Under the pieces are notes generated by a model, which was not told the DNA's origin, did not search any database, and saw only the letters and a list, made by a program, of their open reading frames with translations. Shown one piece after another: positions 6,180-21,076 of a DNA stretch of 64,000 nucleotides. The translations under genes and the position numbers were made by a program. The DNA comes from Candidatus Anderseniibacteriota bacterium (GTDB lineage: Bacteria > Patescibacteriota > JAUYIX01), in NCBI GenBank assembly GCA_046350855.1, contig JAXLZM010000001.1:14104-78103 (forward strand), read 5' to 3'. Each line of letters starts with the position of its first letter. The stretch's first letter is position 1.

Positions 6180-6276
6180 CAAATGCATCGCGAGAGGGAA
6201 GGTGATTGCGACATCTAGCCCTGATTTTGTCAATAATCGAGGCAAACGGCAAGAGAGGCGTGGTACGATAGCGGCA

Positions 6277-9060
6277 ATGCGTAAAAGCGGCCTCAGTTTG
6301 CTCGTAAGTCTCCTTGTTGTACTCATTTTGGGTACGCCTTCTACTCGTCTTTTGGCGGCTCCCGCGTCTGCATCCTCCCTTAGTCTCGCCGCGTTGGCCG
6401 AGCGGGGAGCAATTTTGCCAGATCGGGTAGTGGTTCAACTGGATGAACACACCACCACACCCGCTTTGATCGCCGCGAGTATTGGTAAACAGAGCACAGC
6501 TCTGGTGCGGGCGACGGCCGCGGACCAACCGGTGGCAAGTTTTTTTTCGTTACCGGTTGCGGCCGATCAACGCGACGCGCTCTTGGCGCAACTGCGTGAG
6601 ACCCCAGGCGTGCGCTATGCCGGACCGGAGTATGTCTATCATGCCACCTCAGAACCGCTCTTTACCTCAGAGTGGTCCATGCACAATACCGGGCAAGTGA
6701 TTGGGGGTGTCACGGGTACGGTTGACGCCGATCTCGACGGACCAGAGGCCTGGGCCAACAGCACCGGTAGTGCCAGTGTAGTCGTGGCGGTGGTTGACTC
6801 AGGGGTTGATCTTACGCATGTGGATCTTAGTGCCAACATTTGGACCAATTCTGGACAAGCGTGCGGAGTAGGGGACGGAGATGGCAACACTTTAATTGGT
6901 GATTGCAAAGGCTACGACTTTGTCTCGAGCTTTAGTGGTTCTGGTTCTAACGGACCGCGGGATGATGACCCCAGTCCTTGCAGTACAGACATTTTGGTGC
7001 CTGACACGGGTGACTGTAATGGCGTGGATGATAATGGGGATGGTTCGGCCGACAACTTTGCGGTGCATGGCACACATGTAGCGGGGATCATCGCCGCGCC
7101 TCAAAACTCATTGGGTATCTCCGGGGTAGCACCGAATGTCAAAATTATGCCGGTGCGCGCTTTGACCGAGGATGGTACGGGCATTACCACGGATGTGTTG
7201 GCCGCCATGAACTACGCCATTGATGAGGGTGCCGACGTAATCAACATGAGCTTTGGCTCGGATGTGTTTGACAGCTCTTTTGATAGTGTCGTGTTGGCCG
7301 CCGATGCAGCTAACGTGGTCTTGGTTGCTGCCGCAGGTAACGCTAACGAGAACATCATGACGGGGACGGATTGTGACTCGCCGGTCTGTAACGACGACCC
7401 TAATAGTACCGGACTTAACGGTGTCATCAGTATTGCTGCTACCAATAATAAAGATCGTAAATCGGGTTTTTCTAACTACTCGACGCAGGGGTACGTCGAC
7501 CTTGCGGCCCCTGGACAATCCATTATTTCTACTTGCTACCAAAACAGCGGCACACCGAGCTGTCCGACGGACTTAGGTGGCGGTGGGCGGTACGCCACGA
7601 TCAGTGGAACCAGTCAGGCGACGCCACACGTCAGTGGAGTAGCGGCGCTGATTCGCTCGATTTCGCCGAGTATTTCGGCGCAGGATCTCGCGACCGTTTT
7701 ATTTGCTACCTCCGACAACATCACCTCGGCTAATGTCGGTTTGGGCGGTTGCGGTGGCTCTGATTGCACGACGGGTTCGGGCGGACAGATCGGGCGAGGG
7801 CGGGTCAACGCTGCTAACATCTTTGACCCATCGATCATCTCGCTCTCACCGGGACGGGCCACTCGCGGTACACTCGGATTGAGCGTTACTTTGACCGGAC
7901 TTAATACAGGTTTTTCGGGGAGCTCCAACGCTTCTTTTGGGACCGGAATAAACGTCACGAGTACCTCGTGCAGCAGTGCGACCCGTTGTACGGCCGTTAT
8001 CGATGTTACTGACTCAGCCACCCTAGGAGACCACAGCGTTACTATTAAAACCGGTTCACAAACGGTCAGTAGTCTAGCAGCCTTTGTTGTAGATGATTCT
8101 ATCTTACGAATCGCCGGACCCAACCGGATTGGTACTGCTATCGAAATTAGCAAAAACGGTTTTCCAGCCAACGGCTCAGCTGATGCGGTCTTGATCGCAC
8201 GCAGTGATACCTTTCCGGATAGCTTGGCGGGTGGACCACTGGCGAGTTTAGCTACTGCTCCAATTCTCTTTACGCCCTCTGACTCACTGGACAGCTTTAC
8301 TCAAGCTGAGATCGAGCGTGTGTTGGATCCTGGCAGTGATAGCACCCCGGATATTTACGTGCTCGGACAAACGGCAGCGCTGAGCTCGGCCGTGGAGGCC
8401 CAACTCGGCACGCTTAACGCTAACTGGCAAGTTAAGCGTCTCGGTGGCATTAATCGAGTCGATACAGCCGTGGCCATCGCCGATGAGGGTAATGCCTTAC
8501 GTGGTGGAGCACCTTCGCAAGTGGTTGTGGCGACTCAAGGGACTTTTGCGGATGCACTCAGTGCTGGTGTCCCAGCCGGTGACCCAGTGATTGATGGATC
8601 CCGCATGCCCATTTTATTGACCGATCGAACCAACTTGTCCGCTGGTACCGCCGCCTACCTCAGCGCCTACCGGAATACGATCGGTGCCATCTTTGTGGTT
8701 GGCGGAACCGCTGCGGTGAGCGACGCAGTGGTAACACAGATGTCGCAGTACGTAGGAAATATTCAGCGATTAGATGGTGCCGATCGCTACGAGACCGCTC
8801 AAGCCGTGGCGGAGTACTTTTATCCTACTCCCGTCTCGATCTCATTTGCCTCAGGCTTAAACTTTCCGGATGCAATGGCAGGCAATTGGCACTCAAGCTC
8901 ACAGGGGTCACCCCTCCTGTTAGTACGCGGCAGCGAGACGCCCCAAGCCACCATTGACTACGTCCAAGCGCACGCAGGCACGGTCCTCGGCGGCTTTTTG
9001 TATGGTGGAACAGCTGTAATTCCCGACGATGTCAAAACACTTTTGGAAGGTATCATGTAG
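6277..9060 (+). CDS. Secreted subtilisin-like serine protease (peptidase S8) with three C-terminal CWB2-type cell-wall-binding repeats.
   Basis: The signal peptide is MRKSGLSLLVSLLVVLILG. The S8 catalytic triad motifs are VVAVVDSGVD, HGTHVAGIIAA and GTSQATPHVSGVAAL. There are three repeats of roughly 100 aa with RIAGPNRIGTAIEIS, RLGGINRVDTAVAIA and RLDGADRYETAQAVAEY signatures of the CW_binding_2 type seen in LytC and Cwp proteins. Confidence 0.85.
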   Translation: MRKSGLSLLVSLLVVLILGTPSTRLLAAPASASSLSLAALAERGAILPDRVVVQLDEHTTTPALIAASIGKQSTALVRATAADQPVASFFSLPVAADQRDALLAQLRETPGVRYAGPEYVYHATSEPLFTSEWSMHNTGQVIGGVTGTVDADLDGPEAWANSTGSASVVVAVVDSGVDLTHVDLSANIWTNSGQACGVGDGDGNTLIGDCKGYDFVSSFSGSGSNGPRDDDPSPCSTDILVPDTGDCNGVDDNGDGSADNFAVHGTHVAGIIAAPQNSLGISGVAPNVKIMPVRALTEDGTGITTDVLAAMNYAIDEGADVINMSFGSDVFDSSFDSVVLAADAANVVLVAAAGNANENIMTGTDCDSPVCNDDPNSTGLNGVISIAATNNKDRKSGFSNYSTQGYVDLAAPGQSIISTCYQNSGTPSCPTDLGGGGRYATISGTSQATPHVSGVAALIRSISPSISAQDLATVLFATSDNITSANVGLGGCGGSDCTTGSGGQIGRGRVNAANIFDPSIISLSPGRATRGTLGLSVTLTGLNTGFSGSSNASFGTGINVTSTSCSSATRCTAVIDVTDSATLGDHSVTIKTGSQTVSSLAAFVVDDSILRIAGPNRIGTAIEISKNGFPANGSADAVLIARSDTFPDSLAGGPLASLATAPILFTPSDSLDSFTQAEIERVLDPGSDSTPDIYVLGQTAALSSAVEAQLGTLNANWQVKRLGGINRVDTAVAIADEGNALRGGAPSQVVVATQGTFADALSAGVPAGDPVIDGSRMPILLTDRTNLSAGTAAYLSAYRNTIGAIFVVGGTAAVSDAVVTQMSQYVGNIQRLDGADRYETAQAVAEYFYPTPVSISFASGLNFPDAMAGNWHSSSQGSPLLLVRGSETPQATIDYVQAHAGTVLGGFLYGGTAVIPDDVKTLLEGIM

Positions 9061-10075
9061 TGGTCTCGGCTTGGTATTGCTCGCTGCAACCCTGGCCGTA
9101 CCGACGTACCACTCGGCGCAGGCCGCCGGTTCACTCCAACGTATCGCGGGCCCCAATCGTTTAGGCACCGCCATCGAGGCGAGTCGTCAATTGTTTGCCG
9201 CAACAGACAGTGCCGGCGGCGTAGTACTTGCACGTCAAGATGGATTTGCAGATGCCTTAGCGGCGAGTAGCTTGGCAGGATTGGTGCGAGGCCCAATTTT
9301 ATTAACCCCCGCCAATGCAGCACTTGATCCACTTGTCCTGGATGAGATTAATCGCGTGCTTGCTCCCGGTAAGCCCGTCTTTATTATTGGCGGAACCAGT
9401 GCCCTCAGTAGCAGCCTTGAAGGTGCGCTTGGACAGTATGCGGTTACGCGCCTGGCCGGTCAGGATCGTTTTGAAACCGCAACGCTTATTAAAAAAAGAG
9501 GGGATACGGTACGCGGGAGTGTCGCCAGCGCCGCATTTTTTGTGCGAGGTGATACCTATCCCGATGCACTCTCGGTCTCGAGCTACGCGGCCCTCAGTGG
9601 AACACCGATTTTGTTGGTGCAGCAAAATTTGATTCCACAGACGGTTGCGGATCTGCTCGACTCCACACTTGCTACCGCATATGTTGTAGGAGGAACCTCG
9701 GCCGTGAGTGACGGCGTGCTCACTACCATAGAATCCGCTACCAATAATTTGGCAACGCGCCTGGCCGGTGCCAACCGTTATGAGACCTCGGCCTTGATCG
9801 CTGAGTATTTTTTCCCGAGTCCTTTGGCAGTTTTGCTTGCGACTGGAGAAAATTTTCCGGACGCACTCGCTGGTGGTGTCTTAGCGGGGCTCTCACTGAT
9901 TAGTCCGTCGGGACTACCCGTCCTATTGATTACACAAAACAGTGTGCCTTCGCCGGTTGGGACCTACCTGACGGATAACGCAGCAACCATCGATGATGTA
10001 ACCAGTGGCTACGTAATGGGTGGCGAGGCGGCCGTCTCACTCGATACCGAGCTCTATCTCGAAGGTCGGCTTTAG
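9029..10075 (+). CDS. Secreted protein made only of three CWB2 cell-wall-binding repeats.
   Basis: The signal peptide is MSKHFWKVSCSGLGLVLLAATLAVPTYHSAQA. The repeats are RIAGPNRLGTAIEAS, RLAGQDRFETATLI and RLAGANRYETSALIAEYF. The gene overlaps the protease 3' end by 32 nt. Confidence 0.75.
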   Translation: MSKHFWKVSCSGLGLVLLAATLAVPTYHSAQAAGSLQRIAGPNRLGTAIEASRQLFAATDSAGGVVLARQDGFADALAASSLAGLVRGPILLTPANAALDPLVLDEINRVLAPGKPVFIIGGTSALSSSLEGALGQYAVTRLAGQDRFETATLIKKRGDTVRGSVASAAFFVRGDTYPDALSVSSYAALSGTPILLVQQNLIPQTVADLLDSTLATAYVVGGTSAVSDGVLTTIESATNNLATRLAGANRYETSALIAEYFFPSPLAVLLATGENFPDALAGGVLAGLSLISPSGLPVLLITQNSVPSPVGTYLTDNAATIDDVTSGYVMGGEAAVSLDTELYLEGRL

Positions 10076-10173: not shown

Positions 10174-11352
10174 ATGAAGCTATTGCTTTTTACCTCCGTC
10201 AAGGCGGTGCACAGTCAAAAATGGATCCGCAGTTTAGTAGCTCTTCCGTCGCAGCAGAAGAGTGGTCTTGAGATACATGTTGCGACCTTTAGCGTAGCCC
10301 CTGAGGATCGCATCCCGGGAGTCACCTATCACGAGCTTATACCGAGTACTAAAAGTATTCAGAACGACAAAACCCTACCTGTTAGGCAGGCCCAATCCAC
10401 CATTGCGAGCGAAGCCTGGTTGACGTTCAAAAATGGTCTCAAATTTGCCAAGCGGTTTGCTGAGGTGATCCAAAACGTTGCGCCCGATATGGTCCATGCC
10501 CACCAGTCGGTGCCCTTTGGATGGTATGCCGTACGAGGACTTGCCCGCTCCAGAGTAAAAGTTCCCTTGATCGTCTCGGTCTGGGGAACGGATGTGTTGG
10601 CGTATGCCGAGCAACACTGGCTTTTTAGATTAATGAACTATAGCGTCCTCAAACATGCCACCCTCCTTTGTGCGACTAGCCTGGCGTTAGTCCGAGCCGC
10701 GCAGCGTTGGACGCGTAATCCACGTTGGCTCGTGATTCCATTTGGGGTTGATCCACGGTTATTTAGACAAAAAAAGAACGTGGCAGAGCGGGCCCGGGTC
10801 TTTGGTATGGCTAAGCAACTTAAGTTTATTGGCACCTTAGATGTATACGGATTTGAGACGGCACTAGCTGCCCTCAAGCTAGCCAGTCAAAAAAAATCTG
10901 ATCTTATTTTGGAGATCGCTGGCTCCGGCCCTAAAGAACACTATCTTAAAAAACGTGCTCAGGAGTTAGGAGTTGCTGAGCGGGTTCGTTTTTTGGGGCA
11001 GGTTCAGCCACAAGCATTAGCACAGGTGATGACGAGATGGGATGCATTACTGCTGCCCTCACGCCAGGAGAGTTTTGGGGTGGCTGCGGTGGAGGCTGCC
11101 GCGGTTGGGATCCCGGTCATCGGAGCACGAGTAGGAGGTGTGCCAGAGATCGTTCGAGAGGGGCATACCGGTCGGCTCTTAGCACCCTGTACTCCCGAAC
11201 GTTTGGCTGAGGCGATGCTGCACGTAGATGCGTCGTTGCTCAAAAGTGCTCATACAATTGGACCGCAGCTGGTGCGAGAGCGTTTTAGTTGGGACCAAAG
11301 CGTGCAACGCATGTTGCGCGTCTATACAGTCTTAACGGAGCGTGGAGCATGA
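10174..11352 (+). CDS. Glycosyltransferase family 4.
   Basis: The C-terminal VAAVEAAAVGIPVIGARVGGVPEIVREGHTGRL is the Glycos_transf_1 EX7E region. This is the first gene of the long coupled operon. Confidence 0.8.
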   Translation: MKLLLFTSVKAVHSQKWIRSLVALPSQQKSGLEIHVATFSVAPEDRIPGVTYHELIPSTKSIQNDKTLPVRQAQSTIASEAWLTFKNGLKFAKRFAEVIQNVAPDMVHAHQSVPFGWYAVRGLARSRVKVPLIVSVWGTDVLAYAEQHWLFRLMNYSVLKHATLLCATSLALVRAAQRWTRNPRWLVIPFGVDPRLFRQKKNVAERARVFGMAKQLKFIGTLDVYGFETALAALKLASQKKSDLILEIAGSGPKEHYLKKRAQELGVAERVRFLGQVQPQALAQVMTRWDALLLPSRQESFGVAAVEAAAVGIPVIGARVGGVPEIVREGHTGRLLAPCTPERLAEAMLHVDASLLKSAHTIGPQLVRERFSWDQSVQRMLRVYTVLTERGA

Positions 11353-12650
11353 ACGTCTTACGCAAAGGTTTTGGCGTTTTTATTACGCGCATCTGGACCG
11401 CGGCGGTTTCGCTCATTTTAAGTATCGTCGTAGCACGCGCATTTGGAGCGGATGGCAAGGGGGTCGCTTCGCTCATCTTGCTTTTACCAACCTTACTTGG
11501 AACCTTCGGTAACGCCGGCTTACATATCGCTAATGTGTACCTATATGGCAAACGCGGTGCGCGGATCGAGGCACTCGCCGCTAACTCCATTTGGGTGGCG
11601 CTCGTCCTGGGTCTTGTAGTCACCGGACTCTCACTCGCGCTTTATCCACTGTTAGGACCGCGCTTGTTTGCAGGCGTTCCGGGTTCTTATTTGCTAGCCG
11701 TGACCCTTTTGACTCCGGCTATGCTGGTCTGTTCGTACTTTGGAAATTTACTCCTCGCCACACGTCGAATAAACGCTTTTAACCTAACGGTCGCGCTCCA
11801 AACGGCACTGCAACTCGTAACCGTCCTGGCCGCCGTCTACATTTTTGACGCAGGGGTGGTTGCCGTAGTGTACGGCTTGGTAGCCAACTTACTGTTTGGG
11901 GCTGTCGTCTCGCTGGTCTTGGTCTATCGCACGCACCCTTTTGGTTGGCACTTTGAGCGTGGACTCTTTAGAGAGAGTATTCGCTACGGACTCAAGGGCT
12001 ACCTCGCCAATGCTTTACAGTTTTTAAACTACCGGAGTGACGTTTTAATCGTCAGTTATTTTTTGGGAACGGTCGCGGTCGGCTGGTACAGCGTGGCGGT
12101 CAACTTTGCCGAGATCCTCTGGTACGTCCCGACCGCGCTTGGCACGATTTTGTTTCCGGTGGTTGCGACCTCAGCTTTTGAGTTGGCTAACCAAACCACC
12201 GCCCGCATCAGTCGCCAAACCGTTTTGCTCATGACTTTTGCCTCGGCTGGTGTAGCACTGGCCTGTCCCTGGCTGATTCCTAAAGTCTTTGGTCCTGAGT
12301 TTGAACCCGCCGTCAATGCCCTCTTAGTGTTGCTACCAGGAGTACTCATCTTTTCGGTTGCCAAAATTTTAGGTAATGATTTTTCGGGGAGGGGACTGGT
12401 CGTGACTAATAGTGTGATTAGTGGTTTAGCACTGGTTGCCAACGTTGGGCTTAATATTCTATTTATCCCACGGTTGGGCATCAACGGCGCCGCACTCTCC
12501 TCGACCATTACCTACTCGCTGGCCACAATCGTGTTGGTTATTTTGTTTGCCCGACATACCAAGACGCCCATTGGCCGAGTGGTTCTGCCAGAGAATGGGG
12601 ACGTGATGGATTTGGTACGGTCGGCTCGCTTTAAAAAACGCCCGTCATGA
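11349..12650 (+). CDS. Polysaccharide flippase (Wzx/MOP superfamily) membrane protein.
   Basis: It is a roughly 430-aa polytopic membrane protein with 12 or more hydrophobic segments. An internal ATG at 11349 overlaps the upstream TGA (ATGA). Its position inside a GT cluster is typical of Wzx. Confidence 0.7.
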   Translation: MNVLRKGFGVFITRIWTAAVSLILSIVVARAFGADGKGVASLILLLPTLLGTFGNAGLHIANVYLYGKRGARIEALAANSIWVALVLGLVVTGLSLALYPLLGPRLFAGVPGSYLLAVTLLTPAMLVCSYFGNLLLATRRINAFNLTVALQTALQLVTVLAAVYIFDAGVVAVVYGLVANLLFGAVVSLVLVYRTHPFGWHFERGLFRESIRYGLKGYLANALQFLNYRSDVLIVSYFLGTVAVGWYSVAVNFAEILWYVPTALGTILFPVVATSAFELANQTTARISRQTVLLMTFASAGVALACPWLIPKVFGPEFEPAVNALLVLLPGVLIFSVAKILGNDFSGRGLVVTNSVISGLALVANVGLNILFIPRLGINGAALSSTITYSLATIVLVILFARHTKTPIGRVVLPENGDVMDLVRSARFKKRPS

Positions 12651-13825
12651 ACACAGACCTACGGCCTCTGACTCCAAAAAAAATCGTTATGACGGTCGCT
12701 AATGAATTTACGACCGACTATCGTGTTTTTAGAGAGGCGAGTGCGCTGACCCAGGCAGGCTATGATGTCACGGTTTTGTGCGTGTACCGTGCGGGATTGC
12801 CACGGAGCGAAGAGCGCGCAGGTGTGCACATACGCCGCGTCCTTGACCAACATTTGCGTCTGCCCGTAACGCGTCGGGCCCGGGCGGTGCGGCGGGTCTG
12901 GTGGCAGGCCTTAGTCGCCGCCAAAGCCGATCTGTACCACGCACATGACCGCGATACGCTCGATCTGACCGCCCGCGTGGCGCGTCGCTTTAACGTGCCG
13001 TTTATCTATGATTCGCACGAATTTTGGCCTGATAAAAACCAGTACGAGAACAATACCGGCAGTCTGCGTGATCGTCTCTCTGAGCGGTGGTGGACCGCCA
13101 AAGAGCGCCGCTACGCCCGGCAAGCAAGTGCCAGTATCATGACCAGTGAAGGACATGCCCGTGGGTTGCGACTGCTATATAGTGTCGCGCAACCGGTCTT
13201 AGTACGTAACATCCCCGAGTACCAGCGTGGCCAGGACAAGACTTACTTTAGAAAACGGTTTGGCCTCAAATCGGATGACTTTTTAATCCTGTACTCCGGC
13301 AACATCCAACGCAATCGTGGCCTCGAGCAAGTTTTGGCCGCACTGCGCTTGCTCCCCAAGCACTGTCACTTGGTTATCGTTGGCTATGGACCGTACGCCA
13401 AAACGCTCGAGCAGAGCTTGGCACCCGATCTGCGTCCGCGGGTGCACTTTCATGCTGCGATCCCATTTACGCAGTTGGTGGCGGCCCAGTCTTCGGCCGA
13501 TCTAGGAGTAGCACCGTTCCAGGCCAACTGTTTTAGCCACCGTCACGTGTTACCCAACAAGCCCTTTGAGTACATGATGGCGGAGTTACCCGTGGCGGTT
13601 AGTGCTCTACCGGAGCTGAGCCGTCTGGTACAGGCTGTTGGCTACGGCGAGGTCTTTAAGCCGGATGAACCCAAAGATATCGCCCGTGTCATTAACGGGA
13701 TGTTGCATGATCCGGCTCGGTTACAGCGCTACCGGGAACGGGCCCGGACTGCCTCCGAGACGACCTATCGCTGGGACAAAGAAAAACTAGCCTTGCTCAG
13801 GCTGTATAAACGGATCGTGCCATGA
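12647..13825 (+). CDS. Glycosyltransferase family 4.
   Basis: It has the GT4 architecture with an N-terminal Rossmann start and a C-terminal sugar-donor domain. It is coupled by ATGA to both neighbours. Confidence 0.7.
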   Translation: MNTDLRPLTPKKIVMTVANEFTTDYRVFREASALTQAGYDVTVLCVYRAGLPRSEERAGVHIRRVLDQHLRLPVTRRARAVRRVWWQALVAAKADLYHAHDRDTLDLTARVARRFNVPFIYDSHEFWPDKNQYENNTGSLRDRLSERWWTAKERRYARQASASIMTSEGHARGLRLLYSVAQPVLVRNIPEYQRGQDKTYFRKRFGLKSDDFLILYSGNIQRNRGLEQVLAALRLLPKHCHLVIVGYGPYAKTLEQSLAPDLRPRVHFHAAIPFTQLVAAQSSADLGVAPFQANCFSHRHVLPNKPFEYMMAELPVAVSALPELSRLVQAVGYGEVFKPDEPKDIARVINGMLHDPARLQRYRERARTASETTYRWDKEKLALLRLYKRIVP

Positions 13826-15060
13826 GTCGCTCACTGCGCTCAATGTTATTGGTAGCGTACTACTATCCGCCGCGCGGTGGAGGTGGTGTGCAACGCACGG
13901 TTAAATTTGCTAAGTATTTGCCAGCCTTTGGGGTTCGGCCGGTGGTATTAACCGTGGGTGCCGCGCCACGTTCACTCGTGGACCACTCTTTTAGTGTGGC
14001 CAAAGATGTTGTCCGGGTACCGTACCGCGAACCTGGTCGCTTTTTGGGACGATTGTTTGAGTACACTCGACTTGAGCGCATTGCGGGGTGGATCAGACCC
14101 GCCATTCGACAAGCTCTTGCGACCGTGCATGAGCAGGGGATCGAGCTGCTCTACTCAACCGCCTCGCCGTACAGTAATCATATTGTGGCTTTGCAGGTCG
14201 CGCGTGAGTTGGGCCTGCCCTGGATCGCCGATTTTAGGGATCTCTGGACGGGCAATGCCCTGTACCGCGCTCGTACACCCTGGATTGCAAAACACCATCG
14301 GACTTTAGAGGCAACGGTCTATCGCGAAGCCACCAAGATTGTAGTCACGAGCCCTTCGCAAAAAAAGTATGTCATAGAGGATTTTGGCGTGGCTCCTGAC
14401 AAAATTGTGGTGATTACTAACGGATTTGACTCGCAGGACTTTGCCCAATCCCGTGCCTTGGCAGAACCCACCAACACTACGGCTGCCGCGAGCACCAGTA
14501 GCACACTTGAAATTGGTTACATCGGCTCTTTTTATGGCGACTACCGCCCGGATGATTTTTTACTGGCTCTGCGTTTTTTGCTGCAGCGCCGACCCGAAGT
14601 TTTGCGCGGGGTGCGTTTTAGATTTATTGGGGATTACGATCGGACCAGTCGTGAGGTCCTCGGCCATCCAGAACTCGCGCACGTTATTTCGGTCGAGTCA
14701 TACCTACCGCATGACCAATTACAACGTATGCGCGCCGGGCTTGCGGCAAACCTGCTCTACCTACCAGACCAGGGCGAACGGATTAGGGCTATGATTCCGC
14801 AAAAAGTGTTTGAGTACCTGGCCACCGGTAAGCCGCTTTTTGCGGTGCTGCCCGCCAGTGATGTGGGCGATATTTTATTGCAACACAAAGCCGCGACCCT
14901 GGCCCCTGCCGGCGATCCACTCGGGATTGCCCACACCTTGCAGACTTTTCTTGAGCAGCTGCGGGCCGGCAAGGCAGCACGACCGCAGGGAGATTTTAGC
15001 GCCTTTGAACGTAAAAACCTGACCGCCAAGCTGGCGCGGGTCATTGAGGAGATCGCATGA
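13822..15060 (+). CDS. Glycosyltransferase family 4.
   Basis: The N-terminus LLVAYYYPPRGGGGVQRTVKFAKYL is GT4-like. It is translationally coupled to its neighbours. Confidence 0.7.
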   Translation: MSRSLRSMLLVAYYYPPRGGGGVQRTVKFAKYLPAFGVRPVVLTVGAAPRSLVDHSFSVAKDVVRVPYREPGRFLGRLFEYTRLERIAGWIRPAIRQALATVHEQGIELLYSTASPYSNHIVALQVARELGLPWIADFRDLWTGNALYRARTPWIAKHHRTLEATVYREATKIVVTSPSQKKYVIEDFGVAPDKIVVITNGFDSQDFAQSRALAEPTNTTAAASTSSTLEIGYIGSFYGDYRPDDFLLALRFLLQRRPEVLRGVRFRFIGDYDRTSREVLGHPELAHVISVESYLPHDQLQRMRAGLAANLLYLPDQGERIRAMIPQKVFEYLATGKPLFAVLPASDVGDILLQHKAATLAPAGDPLGIAHTLQTFLEQLRAGKAARPQGDFSAFERKNLTAKLARVIEEIA

Positions 15061-16196
15061 TTGTACGTGGCAAAACGATCGTACTGATCGCGACGGTTGC
15101 ATGGCAGCGTAACTGGCAGCGCCAGCAAGAGTGGGCTAAGCGCCTGGCCGAGCATAACCGGGTTTTATACGTAGCGCCCTACGGTATGACCAGTATGGGT
15201 CCACTGACCGTGCTTAAAAAATTTGCCCGGGAGCGCGGCTTTACCTACCAACATCATCTCTCAACTCAGGCCCAAAAAAATCTAGAGCACGTGCGGCTCA
15301 AATTTATCCCGATCCGCAACAAAGTCTGGCTTAATTGGGTTAACGTCCGCTGGATGCAGCACCAGCTCAAAAAGCTGGGAGTCTTGGATGGACCTGAGAC
15401 GCTTTTTTGGGTCTGTAATCCGGCCGACACAAGTGTTGCCTTGGTTACCCGGTACCCCAAGTCACGTGTTCTCTACGATATTGCTATGCGGTTCAGCCTG
15501 CTGCCCGACGCACCCCCCTGGATTATGGAGTCACAGGCTAGACTGGCCGAGCGCGCCAACGTGATCATCTATGACGCCACGGCTTCGCTGGAGGACTTGC
15601 CAAGCAATAGCCACTATAAAGCGACGTACATACCGCAAGGTTGTGCGGAGGAACGTCTCACGCAAACCGTAAAGGAGCACCCGGCGGTCGCCCAGATCCC
15701 ACACCCACGTGCGGTGTACATTGGACTAGACACGGTCTTGGACGTGCCGCTCCTCAAAAAATTGTTGGCCGAAGTCCCAGCCCTGCAGCTTGTCATGATT
15801 GGCGATGTGTCGCCTCATCCAATTGAGGATCCTCGCGTACACTGGATCGGCCCGGTAAACTACCACCAAAAAGATCGCTACCTGGCCGGGGCGGACGTAG
15901 CCCTTATCCCATATTTGGTTAACCGCTACACGGCTGGAACGTTCCCGACTAAGTTTTTTGAGTATCGCGCCTTGGGCTTGCCGGTCGTGAGCACCGCCTT
16001 ACCCGAACTCAGGCAATTTACCGGGCAGGTGCAACTCGCCAAGACGCCTCTCCAGTTTGTAGAGCAGGTCCGGACTCTGCTGAACAAATCCGCTAAGAGC
16101 AACGGCATAGTACAGACGGTACCGCACGACTTTTTGGCAGAACACACCTGGTCCAAGCGTTTTGAAAAAGTGCAAGAAGTGCTGGGGCCACTCTAA
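15057..16196 (+). CDS. Glycosyltransferase with a GT1-like C-terminal domain.
   Basis: The C-terminal ADVALIPYLVNRYTAGTFPTKFFEYRALGLPVVSTALPEL resembles the Glycos_transf_1 core. The N-terminal domain is divergent. Confidence 0.55.
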   Translation: MIVRGKTIVLIATVAWQRNWQRQQEWAKRLAEHNRVLYVAPYGMTSMGPLTVLKKFARERGFTYQHHLSTQAQKNLEHVRLKFIPIRNKVWLNWVNVRWMQHQLKKLGVLDGPETLFWVCNPADTSVALVTRYPKSRVLYDIAMRFSLLPDAPPWIMESQARLAERANVIIYDATASLEDLPSNSHYKATYIPQGCAEERLTQTVKEHPAVAQIPHPRAVYIGLDTVLDVPLLKKLLAEVPALQLVMIGDVSPHPIEDPRVHWIGPVNYHQKDRYLAGADVALIPYLVNRYTAGTFPTKFFEYRALGLPVVSTALPELRQFTGQVQLAKTPLQFVEQVRTLLNKSAKSNGIVQTVPHDFLAEHTWSKRFEKVQEVLGPL

Positions 16197-16200
16197 TTGT

Positions 16201-18831
16201 ATGCGCGCCAAAACTGCCATCCTCCAATTTAGCGCTCTACTGTTCCTGACCGCGGCCGTAGAGTTTAGTGGTCTACCTTGGGCTCCTTGGTTTGCGCTCC
16301 TGGCTACACTCCTTTTAGCACTGCACTGGACGCGCCAGGGTAAACAACGTTGGATTTTGTATGGCGTCTTGATCTTGACGCTTTTTCCGGAGTTTCAATC
16401 GGGGACACTCGGGGGTCTTGAACTCCATCACATTTTAGCGCTCGTCCTGGCAGTGGTGGTCTTGGTGCCGTGGTTAGTGGTTCGGCCACGACCGCTCCCA
16501 CGCCTCTCGCGTCTACTCATTCTGTACTATGGAGTGGCTCTGGCGGTAACACTCCTGCAGGCCGGTTCACTCGCCAGTACGCATCGCTTGTTGACCGTTA
16601 GTCTCTTTGTCCTCATCGCGTTGCTGGTGCCGTTTGTGGTTACAAAACGTCAGGAGTTGCTCGAACTTTTTTGGGTGCTCACCGCTGCCACTCTTGTCTC
16701 ACTCGTGGTTGGTTTGGCCGCCTACTACTACGCTAGTCTCACGCATACACTCTTTACCAACCCGTACATTCATATCAGCACGGTCGAGGGAGTACCACGT
16801 CTAGCCGCAACCGTACTAGACTCTAACTTTTTGGGGCATCAACTCTTACTAATCGTCCCAGGGTTACTACTGATTACGCACAAATTGCAGGCCCATCTAC
16901 CACGTCTCAAACGTACCGCGCTCTTTTTAGTGACGACCTTTTGTCTTGCCGCCCTCTGGTTAACCTACTCGCGCTCGACCTACCTAGGATTGGCTGTGGC
17001 AGTGGTCGTTCTGCTCTTGGCGGTTCGTCAAAAAATTTGGCGCACCCTGCTCTCCGTCACGATCGCAAGTCTGGCGCTGGCGACGATTTTGATTTCGGCC
17101 TTTCCGTTTTATTCGATCTACCGGGTGCCGTCGAGGGTGTTGCCGACCGAGACTAAAGAGCGGTTGCTTTTAGGTTTTAATCCGCGGGCCTTGGTCGATG
17201 AGTACATTGCACAAATCCAATCGGACCCCACGTTGAGTGAGGAGGAGCGCGAGCAACTCTTGGCACGAGATGTCTCGTCCGAGTCGCTCGGCTACCGCAT
17301 TGAGTTTTGGAAGGCTGGAATACGTATGTTTAAAGACCATCCGGTTTTGGGGGTCGGGGTCGGGCAGTTTCGCTACCGCTTTACGGAGTACTCGGACTTG
17401 AGCTTTATTCAGCAGCCCGACATGCACAATATTTTTATCGAGCAGCTGGCCGAGACGGGTCTCTTGGGTGAACTCGCTCTGCTGCTTGTACTTGGATACG
17501 CCTGTCTCGTTTTGACCCAGACCATCCGGCACGGCACACAAGCAACCAAGCAAGAGGCCAGTGTGCTCTTGGCAGTACTCCTGGCCTTACTTACACAATC
17601 GTTGCTACTCGGTGGTCTCGGCGCTCTACCTATGTACTTGGCCTTGGGAGTGAGTGCCCGCTACGCCTCCTCAGCTCTTTATAAAACTAAAAAACCCCAA
17701 GCGGCGCGACGACGAGTGGTCTTTATCACCGCTACAACCAAAAAAGATGGGCCGGGTAATGTCCTCTTTACCCAAATTAAGGGGCTAGATCGCACACGTT
17801 TTGAGCCGATCGTACTCACCATCTTGCGGGGTGGACCCTGGGATCCCGAATATAGAAAAATGGGTGTACGGCGCATCAATTTGCGTCTACGCAAACCGTT
17901 GGATTTGGCCGCACCGTTTATTTTGTGGATACTGCTACGGCGCTTAAGACCCGCCTTGGTGCAAACCCAAATGATTCGCGGGGACGTTTATGGTCGTTGG
18001 GCCGCCCTTCGTGCAGACGTACCGTTTATTTCGGTCGTGCACAACATGGATATCTGGAAGCAAACTAAGCGGCGCTTTCATCGGTTTGCGACCTGGTTTG
18101 ACGCGCAGGGGCTACTCCAAGCACGCGCCGTCGTAGCCGTCTCGGATGCGGTCAAAAAACACTTACACACTCGACAGGGGATCAACCTCGATATGATTAC
18201 GGTCATCCGTAACGCGGTTGACTTTAAGCGCTTTGCAAAAAAACCAAGTGCGGGGCAACTGGCTCACTTGCGTTTAGAGCTTGGGATTCCTCCTGGTGCT
18301 CCGGTGGTCTTTACCGTAGCGCGAGTTCACCCACAAAAAGCACCTGAGATTTGGTTGCAGGCCGCACTGCAGGTCTTGCGCACCCAGCCTCAGGTCTACT
18401 TTGTATGGGCCGACCGCGGTCCGCTGCTTAACGAGATGCGCAGGGCGGTTCCTCCTCAGTACCGCAAGCAGATCAAGTTTATTGGGTTCCGCACCGACAT
18501 TGCTGAGTTGCTGTATTTGGGTGACCTCTTTGTCTTACCCTCGCGCTTTGAGGGGTTACCTATGGTACTGCTCGAGGCCATGGCCGCCGGTCGGGCCTGC
18601 ATCGCAACTAACGTCTCGGGCAATCCTGAACTCATCGCCCACAACGAGCGGGGTGTGCTGGTTGCTCCAAATCAACCCCTGCAACTCGCGACGGCACTAC
18701 GGGAACTTCTAACAGATCAGCCACGCAGAGAGCGTTTGGGCAGGGCGGCGCAGCGGTTCATCCAGCAAAACTTTACCAGTGAACGGTTATCACGGGAATA
18801 TCAGGACTTGTTTGTTGCACTACTAAGCTAG
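16201..18831 (+). CDS. Fusion protein with an N-terminal polytopic Wzy/O-antigen-ligase-like polymerase domain and a C-terminal GT4 glycosyltransferase domain.
   Basis: The N-terminal 500 aa are highly hydrophobic and carry the Wzy_C/O-antigen-ligase signature GYRIEFWKAGIRMFKDHPVLGVGVGQFRY. The C-terminal region from about aa 520 (VVFITATTKKDGPG...EAMAAGRACIATNVSGNPELI) is GT4. Confidence 0.7.
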   Translation: MRAKTAILQFSALLFLTAAVEFSGLPWAPWFALLATLLLALHWTRQGKQRWILYGVLILTLFPEFQSGTLGGLELHHILALVLAVVVLVPWLVVRPRPLPRLSRLLILYYGVALAVTLLQAGSLASTHRLLTVSLFVLIALLVPFVVTKRQELLELFWVLTAATLVSLVVGLAAYYYASLTHTLFTNPYIHISTVEGVPRLAATVLDSNFLGHQLLLIVPGLLLITHKLQAHLPRLKRTALFLVTTFCLAALWLTYSRSTYLGLAVAVVVLLLAVRQKIWRTLLSVTIASLALATILISAFPFYSIYRVPSRVLPTETKERLLLGFNPRALVDEYIAQIQSDPTLSEEEREQLLARDVSSESLGYRIEFWKAGIRMFKDHPVLGVGVGQFRYRFTEYSDLSFIQQPDMHNIFIEQLAETGLLGELALLLVLGYACLVLTQTIRHGTQATKQEASVLLAVLLALLTQSLLLGGLGALPMYLALGVSARYASSALYKTKKPQAARRRVVFITATTKKDGPGNVLFTQIKGLDRTRFEPIVLTILRGGPWDPEYRKMGVRRINLRLRKPLDLAAPFILWILLRRLRPALVQTQMIRGDVYGRWAALRADVPFISVVHNMDIWKQTKRRFHRFATWFDAQGLLQARAVVAVSDAVKKHLHTRQGINLDMITVIRNAVDFKRFAKKPSAGQLAHLRLELGIPPGAPVVFTVARVHPQKAPEIWLQAALQVLRTQPQVYFVWADRGPLLNEMRRAVPPQYRKQIKFIGFRTDIAELLYLGDLFVLPSRFEGLPMVLLEAMAAGRACIATNVSGNPELIAHNERGVLVAPNQPLQLATALRELLTDQPRRERLGRAAQRFIQQNFTSERLSREYQDLFVALLS

Positions 18832-18833
18832 CC

Positions 18834-19676
18834 ATGCGTATCTCGACCGTCATCGTCAACTATAAAACGCCGGAGTTGCTACGGGAGTGTTTGCGTTCGC
18901 TCGCTCAACACGCGCCCCAAGCTCGGGACATTATCGTGGTCGACAATGCCTCCAAGGACGAGACCATCGCTTTGCTAGCGCGGGAGTTTCCGCAGGTGCG
19001 ACGCATCGCCTCACGTACCAATGCCGGGTTTGCCAAGGCGGTCAACTGGGGAATTACCAACGCGCGGGAGCCCTACATTTTAATCCTCAATCCGGACGTG
19101 ATCGTCTCGGCTGGTTCGGTTCAACGTCTCTACCAAGAGTTGGAGACCGCGCCGGACATCGCTTTGATTGCGCCCAAGTTGCAGTACCCGGACGGATCGC
19201 TCCAGTACTCCTGTTGTCGCTTTCAAACCCCGACTTACATTGTGGCGCACCGCAGCTGGCTTGGTTCAACCAGTTTTGGACAGCGCCTGATCAACCACGT
19301 CCGCATGGTCGATTATGATCATAAAACTCCGCGGGACGTGGACTGGGTGATTGGGGGCTGTATGTTGGTACGACGCAGCGCCATCGAGGAGGTGGGGTTA
19401 ATGGATGAACGCTACTGGCTCTACATCGAAGACATGGATTGGTGTCGGGCCTTTTGGCAAGCCGGCTGGCGGGTTCGCTATGACCCACGCGCGGTGATGA
19501 CCCACCACTACCGTCGCCAATCGGCCAAAGCCCACGGGGTGCGCGGTTTGCTAACTCCACTCGGTCGAGCCCACTTTATCTCGGGAGCCAAGTATTTTGT
19601 TAAGCACATCGGCAACCGTCGTCGTCTAACCGAGGCCCGCAAAACTGGCCAGGACAGCGCGCTGGCGACTCATTGA
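18834..19676 (+). CDS. Glycosyltransferase family 2.
   Basis: ISTVIVNYKTPELLRECLRSL...VVDNASKDETIAL and the DxD region match the GT2 N-terminal signature. Confidence 0.8.
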   Translation: MRISTVIVNYKTPELLRECLRSLAQHAPQARDIIVVDNASKDETIALLAREFPQVRRIASRTNAGFAKAVNWGITNAREPYILILNPDVIVSAGSVQRLYQELETAPDIALIAPKLQYPDGSLQYSCCRFQTPTYIVAHRSWLGSTSFGQRLINHVRMVDYDHKTPRDVDWVIGGCMLVRRSAIEEVGLMDERYWLYIEDMDWCRAFWQAGWRVRYDPRAVMTHHYRRQSAKAHGVRGLLTPLGRAHFISGAKYFVKHIGNRRRLTEARKTGQDSALATH

Positions 19677-19711
19677 CAAGCGTCCAAAGTTTTGGCATAC
19701 TGGCGCGCTTT

Positions 19712-21076
19712 ATGAAGCGTCTCTGGCTCATCATCACGATACTTTCCTTGCTGTGTATCCTCGGTTTGGGGGCACTCTTTTTTTGGATCGCGCAAATGGA
19801 GCCAGGTGGCTCTGCAACGAGTGACGATGCAACTGGTCGTCTGACCCAACTCAAGTCTGAGCTCACGCGGGGCTACCATACCGCGGCAGTACTGCGTCAG
19901 TTTAAAGATGCGGACCCTGAGTCGGTTCTGCTCGTTATCCAAAATGAGTGGGAACTCCGCCCGACCGGTGGCTTTATGACCGCTTTTGGTGAGGGCGAGA
20001 TCGTTAATGGCGGACTTACCAACCTCAGGATCGTCCCGAGCGAGTACTTTGACCCGCAAATCTCACTCAAAGCTCCCATGCCGGCCGGCATGGCCTATCG
20101 CATCACGACCCCAACCCTGGCTATGCGCGACAGTAACTGGGACGTTGACTTTGCCACGACCGCTGCGACTCTCGGCCGCTACTATCAGGACGCCACGGGC
20201 AAAACCCCTGACCTAGTCATCGCTATTACGACCGAGGCCGCCGAGCACGTCTTAGCGCATACTGGGCCGCTCGATTTTACCGTAAACGGCCACACCTTGA
20301 GCGTCACCAGCCAAACCGTTACCGAGACCCTCGAGAACTATACCGACCAATCCTTTAGGGAGCTCGGGCTCGAGTGGGAGACTCGCAAGCAAATCTTGAG
20401 TGCGTTTGGAGAGGCGCTCTTGCCGCGACTGCATGCTTTTGTCAAAGAGCACCCGGTCGATACCTTGCGGCTTGCCAATGAGTTACTCGCCTCGTATGAC
20501 GTGCAGCTTTGGTCAGCGCAACCTTCACTAGCGCAGCATCTTGCGTCTTTGGGTGCTGCCCAAACCGTGGCAGCCACGGGCACAACCGACGGTCTGCTGA
20601 TCGTCGACGCCAACGTGGGTGCCCGTAAAACTAATCGCGTCCTGCAGCAACGCGCTGACTATCGGGTCGATCTTGGTGCCGCCCAGCCAACCGCAACCCT
20701 GCACATCACTTACACCCATACGGGTACACTCGAGCCGACGATTATTGAGTACTATGACACCGTCCGGATATATGTACCCCAGGGCAGCACGCTGCTTACC
20801 CAAGAAAATCTCGACCACGTGCAGACGTATATTCGGCATGGACGAACCGTTTTTGAAGGGCGCCTACGTGTACCAGTTGGCAGCAGCAAAACCATTACGC
20901 TCTCCTACGTTTTACCAAACAGGGTAGCCACGACAGAATTTGCTCAGTATCGCTTACTGCTGGAGCGCCAACCCGGTTCTGCCAACTATCCGGTACAAGT
21001 GACGGTCTTTGATGGCGCCCAAAAAGCGACGATCGATACGGACGTGGCTCACGATCGCACCATCGCGGTCCAGTAA
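19712..21076 (+). CDS. DUF4012-like membrane-anchored protein.
   Basis: It has an N-terminal TM (MKRLWLIITILSLLCILGLGALFFW). The motif LVIQNEWELRPTGGFMTAFGEGEI resembles the DUF4012 N(N)AELRPTGGF signature. It is the last gene of the coupled polysaccharide operon. Confidence 0.55.
   Translation: MKRLWLIITILSLLCILGLGALFFWIAQMEPGGSATSDDATGRLTQLKSELTRGYHTAAVLRQFKDADPESVLLVIQNEWELRPTGGFMTAFGEGEIVNGGLTNLRIVPSEYFDPQISLKAPMPAGMAYRITTPTLAMRDSNWDVDFATTAATLGRYYQDATGKTPDLVIAITTEAAEHVLAHTGPLDFTVNGHTLSVTSQTVTETLENYTDQSFRELGLEWETRKQILSAFGEALLPRLHAFVKEHPVDTLRLANELLASYDVQLWSAQPSLAQHLASLGAAQTVAATGTTDGLLIVDANVGARKTNRVLQQRADYRVDLGAAQPTATLHITYTHTGTLEPTIIEYYDTVRIYVPQGSTLLTQENLDHVQTYIRHGRTVFEGRLRVPVGSSKTITLSYVLPNRVATTEFAQYRLLLERQPGSANYPVQVTVFDGAQKATIDTDVAHDRTIAVQ

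Follow-up and report, generated by a model that had tools for sequence, protein, structure and literature searches.

We examined a 64,000-nucleotide stretch of a Candidatus Anderseniibacteriota contig (hereafter the window) and identified a single gene whose 876-aa product carries a WaaL-like membrane domain followed by a complete GT4 glycosyltransferase. We assign a probability of about 0.6 to this protein being a bifunctional membrane enzyme whose active sites lie on opposite faces of the membrane, acting in a conserved Wzx-dependent envelope-glycan locus of Patescibacteria (CPR). The donor, acceptor and sugar specificities of the fused enzyme discussed below are all ones that we infer. Table 1 lists the features of the gene and its neighbours.

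Table 1. Features of the fused gene and of the locus around it (positions in the window)
Feature	Position (nt)	Strand	Basis or remark
Two CWB2 (cell-wall-binding 2) proteins	6175..10075	+	Directly upstream of the glycan genes; position conserved in orthologous loci
Upstream co-oriented genes	10174..16196	+	Pfam/NCBIfam, synteny
GT4	10174-11352	+	Upstream gene
Wzx/MOP-family flippase	11289..12650	+	Pfam Polysacc_synt, Polysacc_synt_3; kept in all orthologous loci
GT4	12647-13825	+	Upstream gene
GT4 N-lobe protein	13822-15060	+	Upstream gene
TuaH-like GT	15057-16196	+	Directly upstream of the fusion; TuaH 44.7 bits, cut-off 550
Fused-protein gene, complete ORF	16201..18831	+	876 aa plus stop, from ATG
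Membrane domain, aa 1-488	16201..17664	+	14 predicted TM helices, N- and C-terminus inside; WaaL/GT-C-type fold
Pfam Wzy_C (PF04932), aa 246-427	16936..17481	+	80.8 bits, gathering score 31.7
R258 codon, TYSRS motif, outer end of TM10	16972..16974	+	Proposed equivalent of WaaL R191
Large extracytoplasmic loop TM11-TM12, aa 298-410	17092..17430	+	Predicted; holds invariant R366 and H409
R366 codon, SLGYR	17296..17298	+	WaaL R265 equivalent; high-confidence HMMER alignment to 7TPG
H409 codon, PDMHN	17425..17427	+	WaaL H313 equivalent; high-confidence HMMER alignment to 7TPG
Cytoplasmic linker, aa 489-503 as delimited here	17665..17709	+	Basic (YKTKKPQAARRR)
Cytoplasmic GT4 glycosyltransferase, GT-B fold, aa 504-876	17710..18828	+	Pfam, Foldseek
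GT4 N-lobe, Glyco_transf_4, aa 517-676	17749-18228	+	80.4 bits, gathering score 28.5
GT4 C-lobe, Glycos_transf_1, aa 693-852	18277-18756	+	114.2 bits, gathering score 26.4
R708 and K713 of GT4	18322-18339	+	Invariant in 10/10 fused sequences
EX7E motif, E784...E792, FEGLPMVLLE	18550..18576	+	Invariant in 10/10 fused sequences
Downstream co-oriented genes	18834..21076	+	Pfam, synteny
GT2	18834-19676	+	Directly downstream of the fusion
DUF4012 protein	19673-21076	+	Downstream of GT2

The fusion is genuine

The gene is one ORF on the + strand, running from 16162 (TTG) or 16201 (ATG) to 18831, in which the ORF scan of the window found no internal stop. In the other five frames over the 16201-18831 span the longest ORFs are of 143 aa or less, and the same scan found no alternative-frame ORF restarting at the junction. 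The ATG lies 5 nt past the stop of the upstream gene, ortholog N-termini line up from its Met in the alignment, and use of the in-frame TTG as the start codon is unlikely.

The single polypeptide proposed in the first-pass annotation holds up, and the frameshift that it feared might be hidden in the reads does not. An identical 876-aa protein was called independently by NCBI (MFO0704370.1, from a 292-kb contig of a Candidatus Andersenbacteria MAG), and nine fused orthologs of 875-900 aa and 45-64% identity run colinearly and uninterrupted across the linker and have invariant residues in each half. The NCBI record and the relatives belong to Patescibacteria, and a Chloroflexota origin, at first suggested by GC content and DUF4012, was rejected on that ground. 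It could be argued that the true genome has two genes and that assembly, sequencing or gene calling joined them, given that split orthologs (described below) overlap by just 4 bp, so that a one-base error could mimic a fusion, and that at least one related metagenomic contig appears chimeric. We give such an artefact next to no chance in view of ten independently assembled fused sequences (NCBI, JGI, ENA, Logan) with 36-55% sequence difference, and of a linker that in all fused forms is in frame and exceeds the split tail and head together by 10-20 aa. With ten independent assemblies in agreement, a hidden stop or frameshift near nt 17665-17710 is very unlikely, and the fusion is confirmed as genuine.

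The membrane half resembles WaaL

The N-terminal half, about 490 aa with 14 predicted helices, is the polytopic Wzy_C domain that the first-pass annotation had described: the motif GYRIEFWKAGIRMFKDHPVLGVGVGQFRY is present, beginning at aa 364, and the Wzy_C gathering score is clearly exceeded (Table 1). 'Polymerase', the name given there, is not the best label, since the fold and the invariant Arg/Arg/His residues match the WaaL class of O-antigen ligases. GT4 matches swamped the full-length Foldseek search against the PDB, and we therefore modelled the N-terminal 500 aa alone, obtaining 14 helices with a pLDDT of 86.6. The modelling points to a WaaL-class domain of GT-C type, using an undecaprenyl-diphosphate (Und-PP)-linked glycan, with Arg/Arg/His on its outer face. 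The sole PDB sequence match of this half is 7TPG (E 9e-6 with the single sequence, 4.9e-10 with a profile); as no Wzy polymerase structure is among its PDB matches, the structural leaning towards WaaL partly reflects what the database contains.

WaaL of Cupriavidus metallidurans (CAZy GT121; 7TPG/7TPJ) shares with the fused protein the Pfam Wzy_C domain and a long outer loop that precedes the final three helices. Identity to 7TPG is about 17%, and there are 14 helices here compared with 12 in WaaL. The loop of aa 298-410 matches 7TPG residues 259-314 in the alignment and is longer, at about 113 aa, with conserved motifs of its own (the highly conserved LARDVSSxSLGYR...GVGxGQFRY...PDxHN). The CPR host and the C-terminal GT4 are further differences from WaaL. 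The WaaL triad R191, R265 and H313 corresponds to R258, R366 and H409, which are invariant in 16 of 16 sequences. R366 also matches SLGAR of E. coli WaaL by hhalign, with weak statistics. R258 was placed against N188-G-T-R191 of 7TPG by a weak HMMER sub-alignment, and its equivalence to R191 is of low confidence because this alignment is low-scoring. In WaaL, R191 and R265 bind the Und-PP phosphate and H313 is the proposed acceptor-activating base (PMC10920833).

Aligned by hhalign with E. coli K-12 WaaL, the membrane-domain profile found the right loop and placed HLHNE at H409, but with a probability of 1.5% and E of 0.034; with the K-12 Wzy protein WbbH no meaningful alignment was obtained. 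Such comparisons with single K-12 sequences are too weak to discriminate between ligase and polymerase. The NCBIfam scan of the membrane half gave only ligase-like partial matches (IctB, PEP_O_lig_1) and matched no Wzy polymerase model.

In the predicted topology all K/R-rich loops and the linker (6 K/R) lie on the GT4 side and the conserved loops all lie opposite. By this positive-inside arrangement the putative WaaL-like site faces outward and the GT4 is cytoplasmic. The full-length model has a pTM of only 0.66 and does not predict the relative placement of the two domains.

The GT4 half is probably active

The first-pass annotation was also right that the C-terminal GT4, about 370 aa, is complete: both Pfam lobes score above their gathering scores (Table 1) and the motif EAMAAGRACIATNVSGNPELI is present, beginning at aa 792. 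Foldseek aligned this half with the retaining GT4 enzymes HepE (4xsp), BA1558 (2jjm), BshA and MshA (3c4q) at TM 0.80-0.86. The GT-B fold, EX7E motif and R/K phosphate-binding residues are common to it and to HepE (4XSP), BshA (3MBO/5D00), MshA (3C4Q) and PglA (8DQD); unlike these enzymes it is tethered to a membrane domain. We take E784, E792, R708 and K713 to be the residues with which retaining GT4 enzymes typically bind the nucleotide sugar and carry out catalysis. Judged by its motifs, the GT4 half appears catalytically intact and retaining.

Its best NCBIfam family match is TIGR03088 stp2 (PEP-CTERM/XrtA glycosyltransferase), at 146.5 bits for a cut-off of 409, and the TuaC model scored 80.4 bits for a cut-off of 550. 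The NCBIfam scans yielded no equivalog-level assignment for either half or any neighbour, and since the scores are far below equivalog cut-offs no specific GT4 function is transferable.

The linker varies in length and sequence among fused clades, and at this place the split orthologs have a stop codon and an ATGA restart. A GT4 of the same subfamily, 33% identical, forms the C-terminal part (aa 588-909) of a metagenomic MurJ-GT4 fusion (P0016; MurJ at aa 40-489). There too the N-terminal polytopic partner handles lipid-linked glycans, but it is a flippase and not a GT-C transferase. Tandem GT4 polyproteins were grouped with P0016 among related architectures.

A conserved locus, probably for an envelope glycan

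The conserved locus comprises CWB2 wall proteins, GT4s, Wzx, the fusion, GT2 and DUF4012, and the synteny of Wzx, at least six GT domains, DUF4012 and CWB2 holds in genomes down to about 45% identity. A 7.7-kb contig reaching past the upstream edge of the window adds one more GT2. The whole looks like a Wzx-dependent cell-wall glycan pathway. Within ±10 kb there are Wzx and only one GT-C-type protein, with no separate Wzy, a pattern expected of a polymerase. DUF4012 proteins, of unknown function, are enriched in CPR and Gram-positive bacteria (PMC6744442).

The CWB2 pair consists of an S8 subtilase with three CWB2 repeats and a 348-aa SlpA-like protein, also with three. In C. difficile, CWB2 proteins bind PSII, a wall polysaccharide encoded next door (PMC4973711), and by analogy it is possible that the CWB2 proteins here bind the glycan that the locus produces. 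Neither the window nor the 7.7-kb upstream contig revealed an initiating phosphoglycosyltransferase, an LCP or rml genes. LPS genes were not seen in the window either, and no Wzz/PCP Pfam domain occurs in the genes scanned or within ±10 kb of the orthologs.

Fused and split forms of the enzyme

That the two halves are normally separate proteins and their union unusual, as first proposed, agrees with what orthologous loci and databases show. At several loci (L002, L008 and L009/L010) the same neighbours enclose two genes, one for Wzy_C (494-512 aa) and one for GT4 (375-378 aa), with a 4-bp overlap (ATGA). Fused forms are rare: an exhaustive profile search of 1.84 billion proteins returned only two representatives at 50% clustering. 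The nearest stand-alone relatives of the GT4 half are the same-locus split partners (P0021, P0037), and of the roughly 100 Wzy_C relatives farther away that a membrane-domain profile search collected, none has a GT domain in its Pfam architecture. In literature searches on bifunctional ligase/GT enzymes and on glycan enzymes of Saccharibacteria and Patescibacteria, the architecture was undescribed beyond WadA, to which we return below.

In an unrooted bipartition bootstrap of 200 replicates, three fused clades and two split clades each had 100% support, alongside a lone split sequence (P0013), and all fused forms were parted from all split forms in 0/200 replicates. Fused and split forms are thus interspersed in the tree and the fusion is evolutionarily labile; the state has switched more than once. 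The fusion arose by the joining of two adjacent genes with a 4-bp overlap that are still separate in sister lineages. Function does not depend on covalent fusion, as the translationally coupled split orthologs show. Paralogy, by which one genome would have both a fused and a split copy, was rejected as unsafe, the contig bearing both also having duplicated ribosomal protein genes.

Proposed function and its alternatives

In the mechanism that we propose, the GT4 half would use a nucleotide sugar to glycosylate a lipid-linked intermediate in the inner leaflet, adding either the last sugar of an Und-PP-linked glycan or one in an acceptor head-group. Wzx would flip the Und-PP-glycan, and the WaaL-like half would then take the glycan off Und-PP and pass it on en bloc, by an inverting reaction, to an acceptor outside the membrane. 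For this acceptor we envisage either a glycolipid, on the example of TacL and WadA, or a surface protein; in the Patescibacteria lineage an acceptor other than lipid A-core is expected. The acceptor is without genomic support, since an initiating phosphoglycosyltransferase, an LCP ligase and a glycolipid synthase were not found in the window. The product would probably be the secondary cell-wall glycan recognised by the adjoining CWB2 proteins, and a functional coupling of the GT4 and membrane halves is plausible.

We judge ligase-type transfer to be likelier than repeat-unit polymerisation, favouring it slightly in absolute terms and holding polymerisation possible at rather less than even odds. 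Polymerisation would imply a classical Wzx/Wzy pathway in which the membrane half is the Wzy polymerase, the GT4 half adds the last sugar of the repeat, and peptidoglycan attachment is encoded elsewhere. Wzy polymerases (BP-Pols, CAZy clan GT-C1) and B. subtilis TuaE are of the same superfamily and have the same membrane architecture, a long C-proximal outer loop and a Wzx partner. True polymerases also fall under Pfam Wzy_C, Wzx is present here, and the conserved locus encodes no other membrane protein of GT-C type. The teichuronic-acid pathway uses a Wzy_C-type polymerase, TuaE, and weak tua-like echoes (TuaH and TuaC as above; TuaG in a neighbour at 27 bits) are found here, but all score far under the equivalog cut-offs (400 for TuaG). 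DUF4012 could serve as a co-polymerase-like auxiliary protein; against this pathway, the locus showed no co-polymerase, the ±10 kb examined yielded neither a Wzz/PCP domain nor an LCP, and no NCBIfam polymerase model matched. At least 6-9 GT domains would also make for an unusually large repeat unit. In BP-Pols, as in the WaaL class, conserved Arg residues bind Und-PP, but related inverting polymerases have Asp/Glu at the position of the WaaL His, a rule that comes from a single bioinformatic study (PMC10920833), whereas the residue aligned there in the fused protein is the invariant H409. Taken as a complete pathway, the polymerase alternative is a tentative one.

The Wzy_C domain and an essential His are also common to O-oligosaccharyltransferases, and a PglL/WsfB-like membrane half could glycosylate surface or S-layer-like proteins with the locus oligosaccharide, for example the two secreted CWB2 proteins found directly upstream in every ortholog. 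A single complex oligosaccharide would agree with the many GTs and the lack of a polymerase or co-polymerase. We nevertheless consider this activity unlikely: Pfam found neither PglL_A (PF15864) nor Wzy_C_2 (PF11846) in the fused protein, the match to TIGR03097 ('putative O-glycosylation ligase') is weak at 43.6 bits, far under its cut-off of 188, and the CWB2 adjacency is equally explained by non-covalent glycan binding, as in C. difficile. Both accessory domains are present in a distant relative (P0246).

Returning to ligase-type transfer, a 'self-priming' version can be envisaged in which the GT4 half would make the head-group of a glycolipid acceptor and, after flipping, the WaaL-like half would join the Wzx-exported Und-PP-glycan to that same acceptor. 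We regard this version as speculative and improbable.

Comparison with WadA and TacL

WadA of Brucella and Mesorhizobium is bimodular, with a GT25 and an O-antigen ligase (PMC9938171, PMC10920833). In its model the GT is cytoplasmic and the ligase periplasmic, and the GT makes the sugar needed by the ligase step (PMC9938171). The fused protein is predicted to resemble it in uniting a cytoplasmic Leloir glycosyltransferase and a Wzy_C-type ligase in one polypeptide, with sites on opposite faces. Compared by description, the WadA glycosyltransferase is an N-terminal GT25 (GT-A) and the one here a C-terminal GT4 (GT-B), and WadA acts in a setting of LPS core and O-antigen in diderm Alphaproteobacteria, unlike the present CPR locus. 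As there is no evidence of common descent with WadA, the fusion appears to be an independent invention. The coupling of last sugar addition to ligation, suggested in the first-pass annotation, is not new in principle, being already the published WadA model (PMC9938171).

TacL (RafX), the lipoteichoic acid ligase of Streptococcus pneumoniae, is a Wzy_C membrane protein from a bacterium without LPS, proposed to transfer a Und-PP-linked polymer flipped by a Wzx-type protein to a membrane glycolipid, with inversion (PMC5727136). It differs, again by description, in being a stand-alone protein of 397 aa with separate GTs making the glycolipid anchor.

Implications

WadA (2023) was the first described enzyme whose active sites lie on both membrane faces in one glycan pathway. 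The fused protein would be the same solution arisen independently, with another GT fold, reversed domain order and a different cell-envelope type; it overturns no current concept. The natural fused and split orthologs act as a 'Rosetta stone', indicating that a specific GT4 and a WaaL-like transferase act as a unit. If the 'self-priming' version were true, CPR bacteria would gain a lipid-anchored secondary wall polymer docking CWB2 surface proteins; the WadA logic would have been reinvented independently in a monoderm-type form, offering a way into the envelope of lipid-scavenging epibionts. The envelopes and host-attachment surfaces of Patescibacteria are largely unknown, and the fusion, because it lies in a conserved chromosomal locus beside CWB2 wall proteins, offers a concrete entry point into how these bacteria build their surface glycans.

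A single reading frame encodes a Wzy_C domain and a GT4 glycosyltransferase

The first-pass annotation described one polypeptide joining a Wzy/O-antigen-ligase-like membrane domain to a GT4 glycosyltransferase, and the reading frame bears this out. The fusion is encoded by one unbroken ORF, whose product is 876 aa long if translation starts at the ATG (16201) and 889 aa if it starts at a TTG farther upstream (16162). The remaining reading frames across this span contain short ORFs only, and the ATG begins 5 nt past the stop codon of the preceding gene. The protein contains both peptide motifs quoted in the annotation, one at aa 364, the other at aa 792. Pfam-A recovers Glyco_transf_4 (80.4 bits) and Glycos_transf_1 (114.2 bits) above threshold, and failure of the Wzy_C model, one way in which the proposal might have been wrong, is ruled out by its score of 80.8 bits (gathering score 31.7).

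The other, a hidden frameshift, is ruled out by an identical NCBI protein and nine colinear fused homologs. The NCBI entry MFO0704370.1 (Patescibacteria/Parcubacteria group), titled 'MAG: glycosyltransferase [Candidatus Andersenbacteria bacterium]', has the exact 876-aa sequence on a 292-kb contig. Searching 5.8 billion clustered proteins, we found nine full-length homologs (875–900 aa, 45–64% identity), each with Wzy_C plus GT4; JGI labels three of the nine 'glycosyltransferase involved in cell wall biosynthesis/O-antigen ligase'. The alignment is colinear across the linker and both halves contain invariant residues. Since ten independent assemblies, at 45–64% identity, are all fused, a shared sequencing error is excluded and, by these comparisons, the fusion is real.

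Fused and split orthologs are intermixed in a small family

The same search returned six stand-alone Wzy_C proteins of ~500 aa, 42–47% identical to the N-terminal half. Their genes fill the syntenic slot of the fusion in the split loci L002 (a Ca. Saccharibacteria MAG), L008 and L009/L010, where a GT4 gene (375–378 aa) comes next after the Wzy_C gene, the stop codon of the one and the ATG of the other overlapping by 4 bp (ATGA). Linkers of the fused forms exceed split tail plus head by 10–20 aa and differ from one fused clade to another. In an unrooted bipartition bootstrap of the membrane domain only (200 replicates), each of three fused clades (the window's protein with P0001–3, P0004–6 and P0007–9) had 100% support, as did split clades P0010–12 and P0014–15, with split P0013 standing alone. 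Fused P0007–9 joined split P0014–15 in 65% of replicates, and all fused forms separated from all split forms in 0/200. To judge from these sequences the fusion is facultative, and the intermixing of fused and split clades indicates that the state has switched at least twice, the deep branching order being poorly resolved.

One JGI contig, Ga0606640_0000003 (1,223,257 bp), carries two complete copies of the locus, a split one at 95.4–116.9 kb (L008; 494 aa + 378 aa) and a fused one at 1,169.5–1,184.2 kb (L014; P0006, 892 aa). They are ~45% identical to each other, and both precede CtpA plus ribosomal protein genes L9 and L27. This contig more likely results from chimeric assembly of two related genomes than from a true duplication.

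When 1.84 billion representatives (50% clustering) were searched exhaustively with a HMMER profile, only two fused representatives (P0006, P0003) and one split (P0010) were recovered; the remaining top matches carry either two to four GT4 modules in tandem or a different combination of GT domains. Searching with the membrane domain alone brought up ~100 more remote Wzy_C proteins at 36–78 bits, compared to 600–840 bits within the family; none of them has a GT domain, C-terminal TPR repeats being their commonest added feature. As far as these searches extend, the Wzy_C-GT4 fusion occurs only in a single small and isolated family of Patescibacteria. It is a genuine, uncommon architecture; our literature searches found no publication describing the family, whose sequences sit in databases under generic names.

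The nearest non-orthologous relatives of the GT4 half (P0019–P0165) have two to four tandem GT4 modules and reach 1,863 aa, some with additional GT2 or polysaccharide deacetylase domains. A metagenomic protein of 938 aa (P0016) joins a MurJ-family flippase (aa 40–489) to a C-terminal GT4 (aa 588–909) 33% identical to that of the fusion, a second case of such a GT4 tethered to a membrane protein handling lipid-linked glycans.

The fusion lies in a conserved envelope glycan locus

The fusion belongs to a co-oriented run of genes that extends from the S8 protease gene to the gene for ribosomal protein L9 (Table). Farther upstream are two GT4-type genes, one of which encodes a protein resembling the beta-1,4-rhamnosyltransferase Cps2T (174 bits, under cut-off); Cps2T catalyses the second, committed reaction in building pneumococcal capsule units. 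A divergent Amidase_2/SpoIID gene, conserved in orthologous loci, lies between two glycosyltransferase gene groups. A further GT2 gene is found immediately upstream of the window start (L011:1-663), and the glycan locus therefore runs past the window. Among the genes scanned, none encodes an initiating phosphoglycosyltransferase, LCP, Wzz/PCP or second GT-C protein.

Table. Features in the window and domains of the fused protein
Feature	Position	Strand
Low-GC stretch	52000-58000	
DUF1972/GT4 protein, Cps2T-like	1486-2646	+
Amidase_2 (N-acetylmuramoyl-L-alanine amidase) + Ig-like N_BRCA1_IG repeats + SpoIID, 1,227 aa	2643-6326	-
S8 protease (subtilase), three CWB2 repeats	6175-9060	+
CWB2 protein, 348 aa, three CWB2 repeats; resembles C. 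difficile SlpA anchoring region (84.6 bits)	9029-10075	+
GT4	10174-11352	+
Wzx	11289-12650	+
GT4	12647-13825	+
GT4 N-lobe protein	13822-15060	+
TuaH-like GT	15057-16196	+
Fusion	16201-18831	+
Fusion, Wzy_C	aa 246-427	
Fusion, Glyco_transf_4	aa 517-676	
Fusion, Glycos_transf_1	aa 693-852	
GT2	18834-19676	+
DUF4012 protein, 467 aa	19673-21076	+
CtpA-type S41 protease, then ribosomal protein L9	downstream of DUF4012 gene	
PrsW-family protease	31564-32820	
Tyrosine recombinase (Phage_integrase + SAM-like N-domain, XerC/D-like)	32826-33806	-
ORF, no Pfam match	55198-56340	
Type ISP restriction-modification enzyme (MmeI-like methylase + Type_ISP_C), 1,031 aa	56371-59466	-
ORF, no Pfam match	59414-60490	

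The gene order is repeated on orthologous contigs of 0.34–1.2 Mb, down to ~45% identity, marking this as a conserved chromosomal envelope locus; the same synteny led us to reject a mobile-island reading. In every orthologous locus two CWB2 proteins are encoded directly upstream of the glycan genes, a layout that mirrors the C. difficile slpA/cwp genes beside the anionic-polymer locus. In C. difficile, PSII is the wall polysaccharide to which CWB2 proteins bind, and CWB2 genes adjoin its presumed locus (PMC4973711). The locus described here may, by analogy, produce the glycan ligand of its CWB2 proteins. In most of the orthologous loci inspected (L006, L007, L008, L014) the DUF4012 gene comes directly after GT2, and none was called at that position in L009/L010. 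The DUF4012 family is over-represented among CPR and Gram-positive bacteria and occurs in a Bifidobacterium CPS locus, with no known function (PMC6744442); in this pathway its member may play an auxiliary or co-polymerase-like part.

Elsewhere in the window, a gene for a Type ISP enzyme overlaps a stretch of low GC (0.41–0.48 compared to ~0.55 elsewhere), with two ORFs lacking Pfam matches nearby; this region looks like a horizontally acquired defence island. A tyrosine recombinase gene adjoins that of a PrsW-family protease.

The membrane half resembles WaaL

The AF2 model of aa 1–500 is confident (pLDDT 86.6, pTM 0.88) and has 14 helices, and Foldseek matched it to 7tpg_B (E 7e-7), a WaaL O-antigen ligase of Cupriavidus metallidurans. 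7TPG was also the sole PDB match by sequence (E 9e-6 with a single sequence, 4.9e-10 with a profile). High-confidence columns align SLGYR366 to SVGVR265 and DMH409N to HAH313N of 7TPG, and a weak sub-alignment places TYSR258 on NGTR191; R258, R366 and H409 are invariant in 16/16 family members. In inverting repeat-unit polymerases of the same clan the His position is occupied by Asp or Glu (PMC10920833). NCBIfam gave partial sub-threshold matches to IctB and 'putative O-glycosylation ligase', and none of its polymerase models matched. The same loop of E. coli K-12 WaaL (SLGAR...HLHNE) aligned with weak statistics, and direct comparison with the K-12 polymerase WbbH gave nothing. On this evidence, the membrane domain appears to belong with the WaaL ligases and not with the polymerases, the matches including no Wzy structure for comparison.

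The GT4 half is predicted to be cytoplasmic

The C-terminal half matches solved retaining GT4 enzymes, including HepE, BA1558, BshA, MshA and PglA, at Foldseek TM 0.80–0.86, and its EX7E motif (E784, E792), R708 and K713 are invariant. Its top NCBIfam match, TIGR03088 stp2, scores 146 bits against a cut-off of 409, so that it gives no basis for assigning a specific activity.

With 14 modelled helices and the N-terminus inside, the K/R-rich loops are all cytoplasmic, as is the linker (6 K/R, no D/E), and the conserved loops are all outside: aa 62–74, 182–207, 255–257 (beside R258) and a 113-aa loop at 298–410 containing R366 and H409. Because of this distribution the GT4 domain is predicted to be cytoplasmic, the placement that a nucleotide-sugar-dependent enzyme requires. 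The full-length model (pLDDT 79.6, pTM 0.66) leaves the mutual orientation of the two domains undefined.

Proposed mechanism and comparison with WadA

The protein comprises two intact catalytic modules, encoded in a Wzx-containing glycan locus and predicted to lie on opposite membrane faces. Across the family the two modules are tightly coupled genetically, through fusion in some members and an ATGA overlap of 4 bp in others. We suggest that the GT4 half would act at the inner leaflet on a lipid-linked intermediate, that Wzx would then flip the Und-PP-glycan, and that the WaaL-like site would move the glycan from Und-PP onto an acceptor outside. Ligase-type transfer, to a glycolipid or protein, is the reading we favour, at a probability of about 0.55; a glycolipid acceptor has been proposed for TacL, a Wzy_C ligase of S. 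pneumoniae (PMC5727136). That the membrane half acts in polymerisation instead is a tentative but serious alternative, for which its being the sole GT-C protein among the genes scanned stays a strong argument.

In Brucella WadA, a bimodular protein, a cytoplasmic GT makes the sugar needed by the outer reaction (PMC9938171). The fusion suggests a similar logic, in which the sugar could belong to the donor or the acceptor. WadA is cited as the sole bimodular ligase in the CAZy GT121 paper (PMC10920833). It differs from the present family in its glycosyltransferase (GT25/GT-A rather than GT4/GT-B), in domain order, and in phylum and envelope type; split orthologs, known for the present family, are a further difference. 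The Wzy_C-GT4 fusion does not challenge current understanding; it provides a useful functional link and a way into envelope biogenesis in Patescibacteria.
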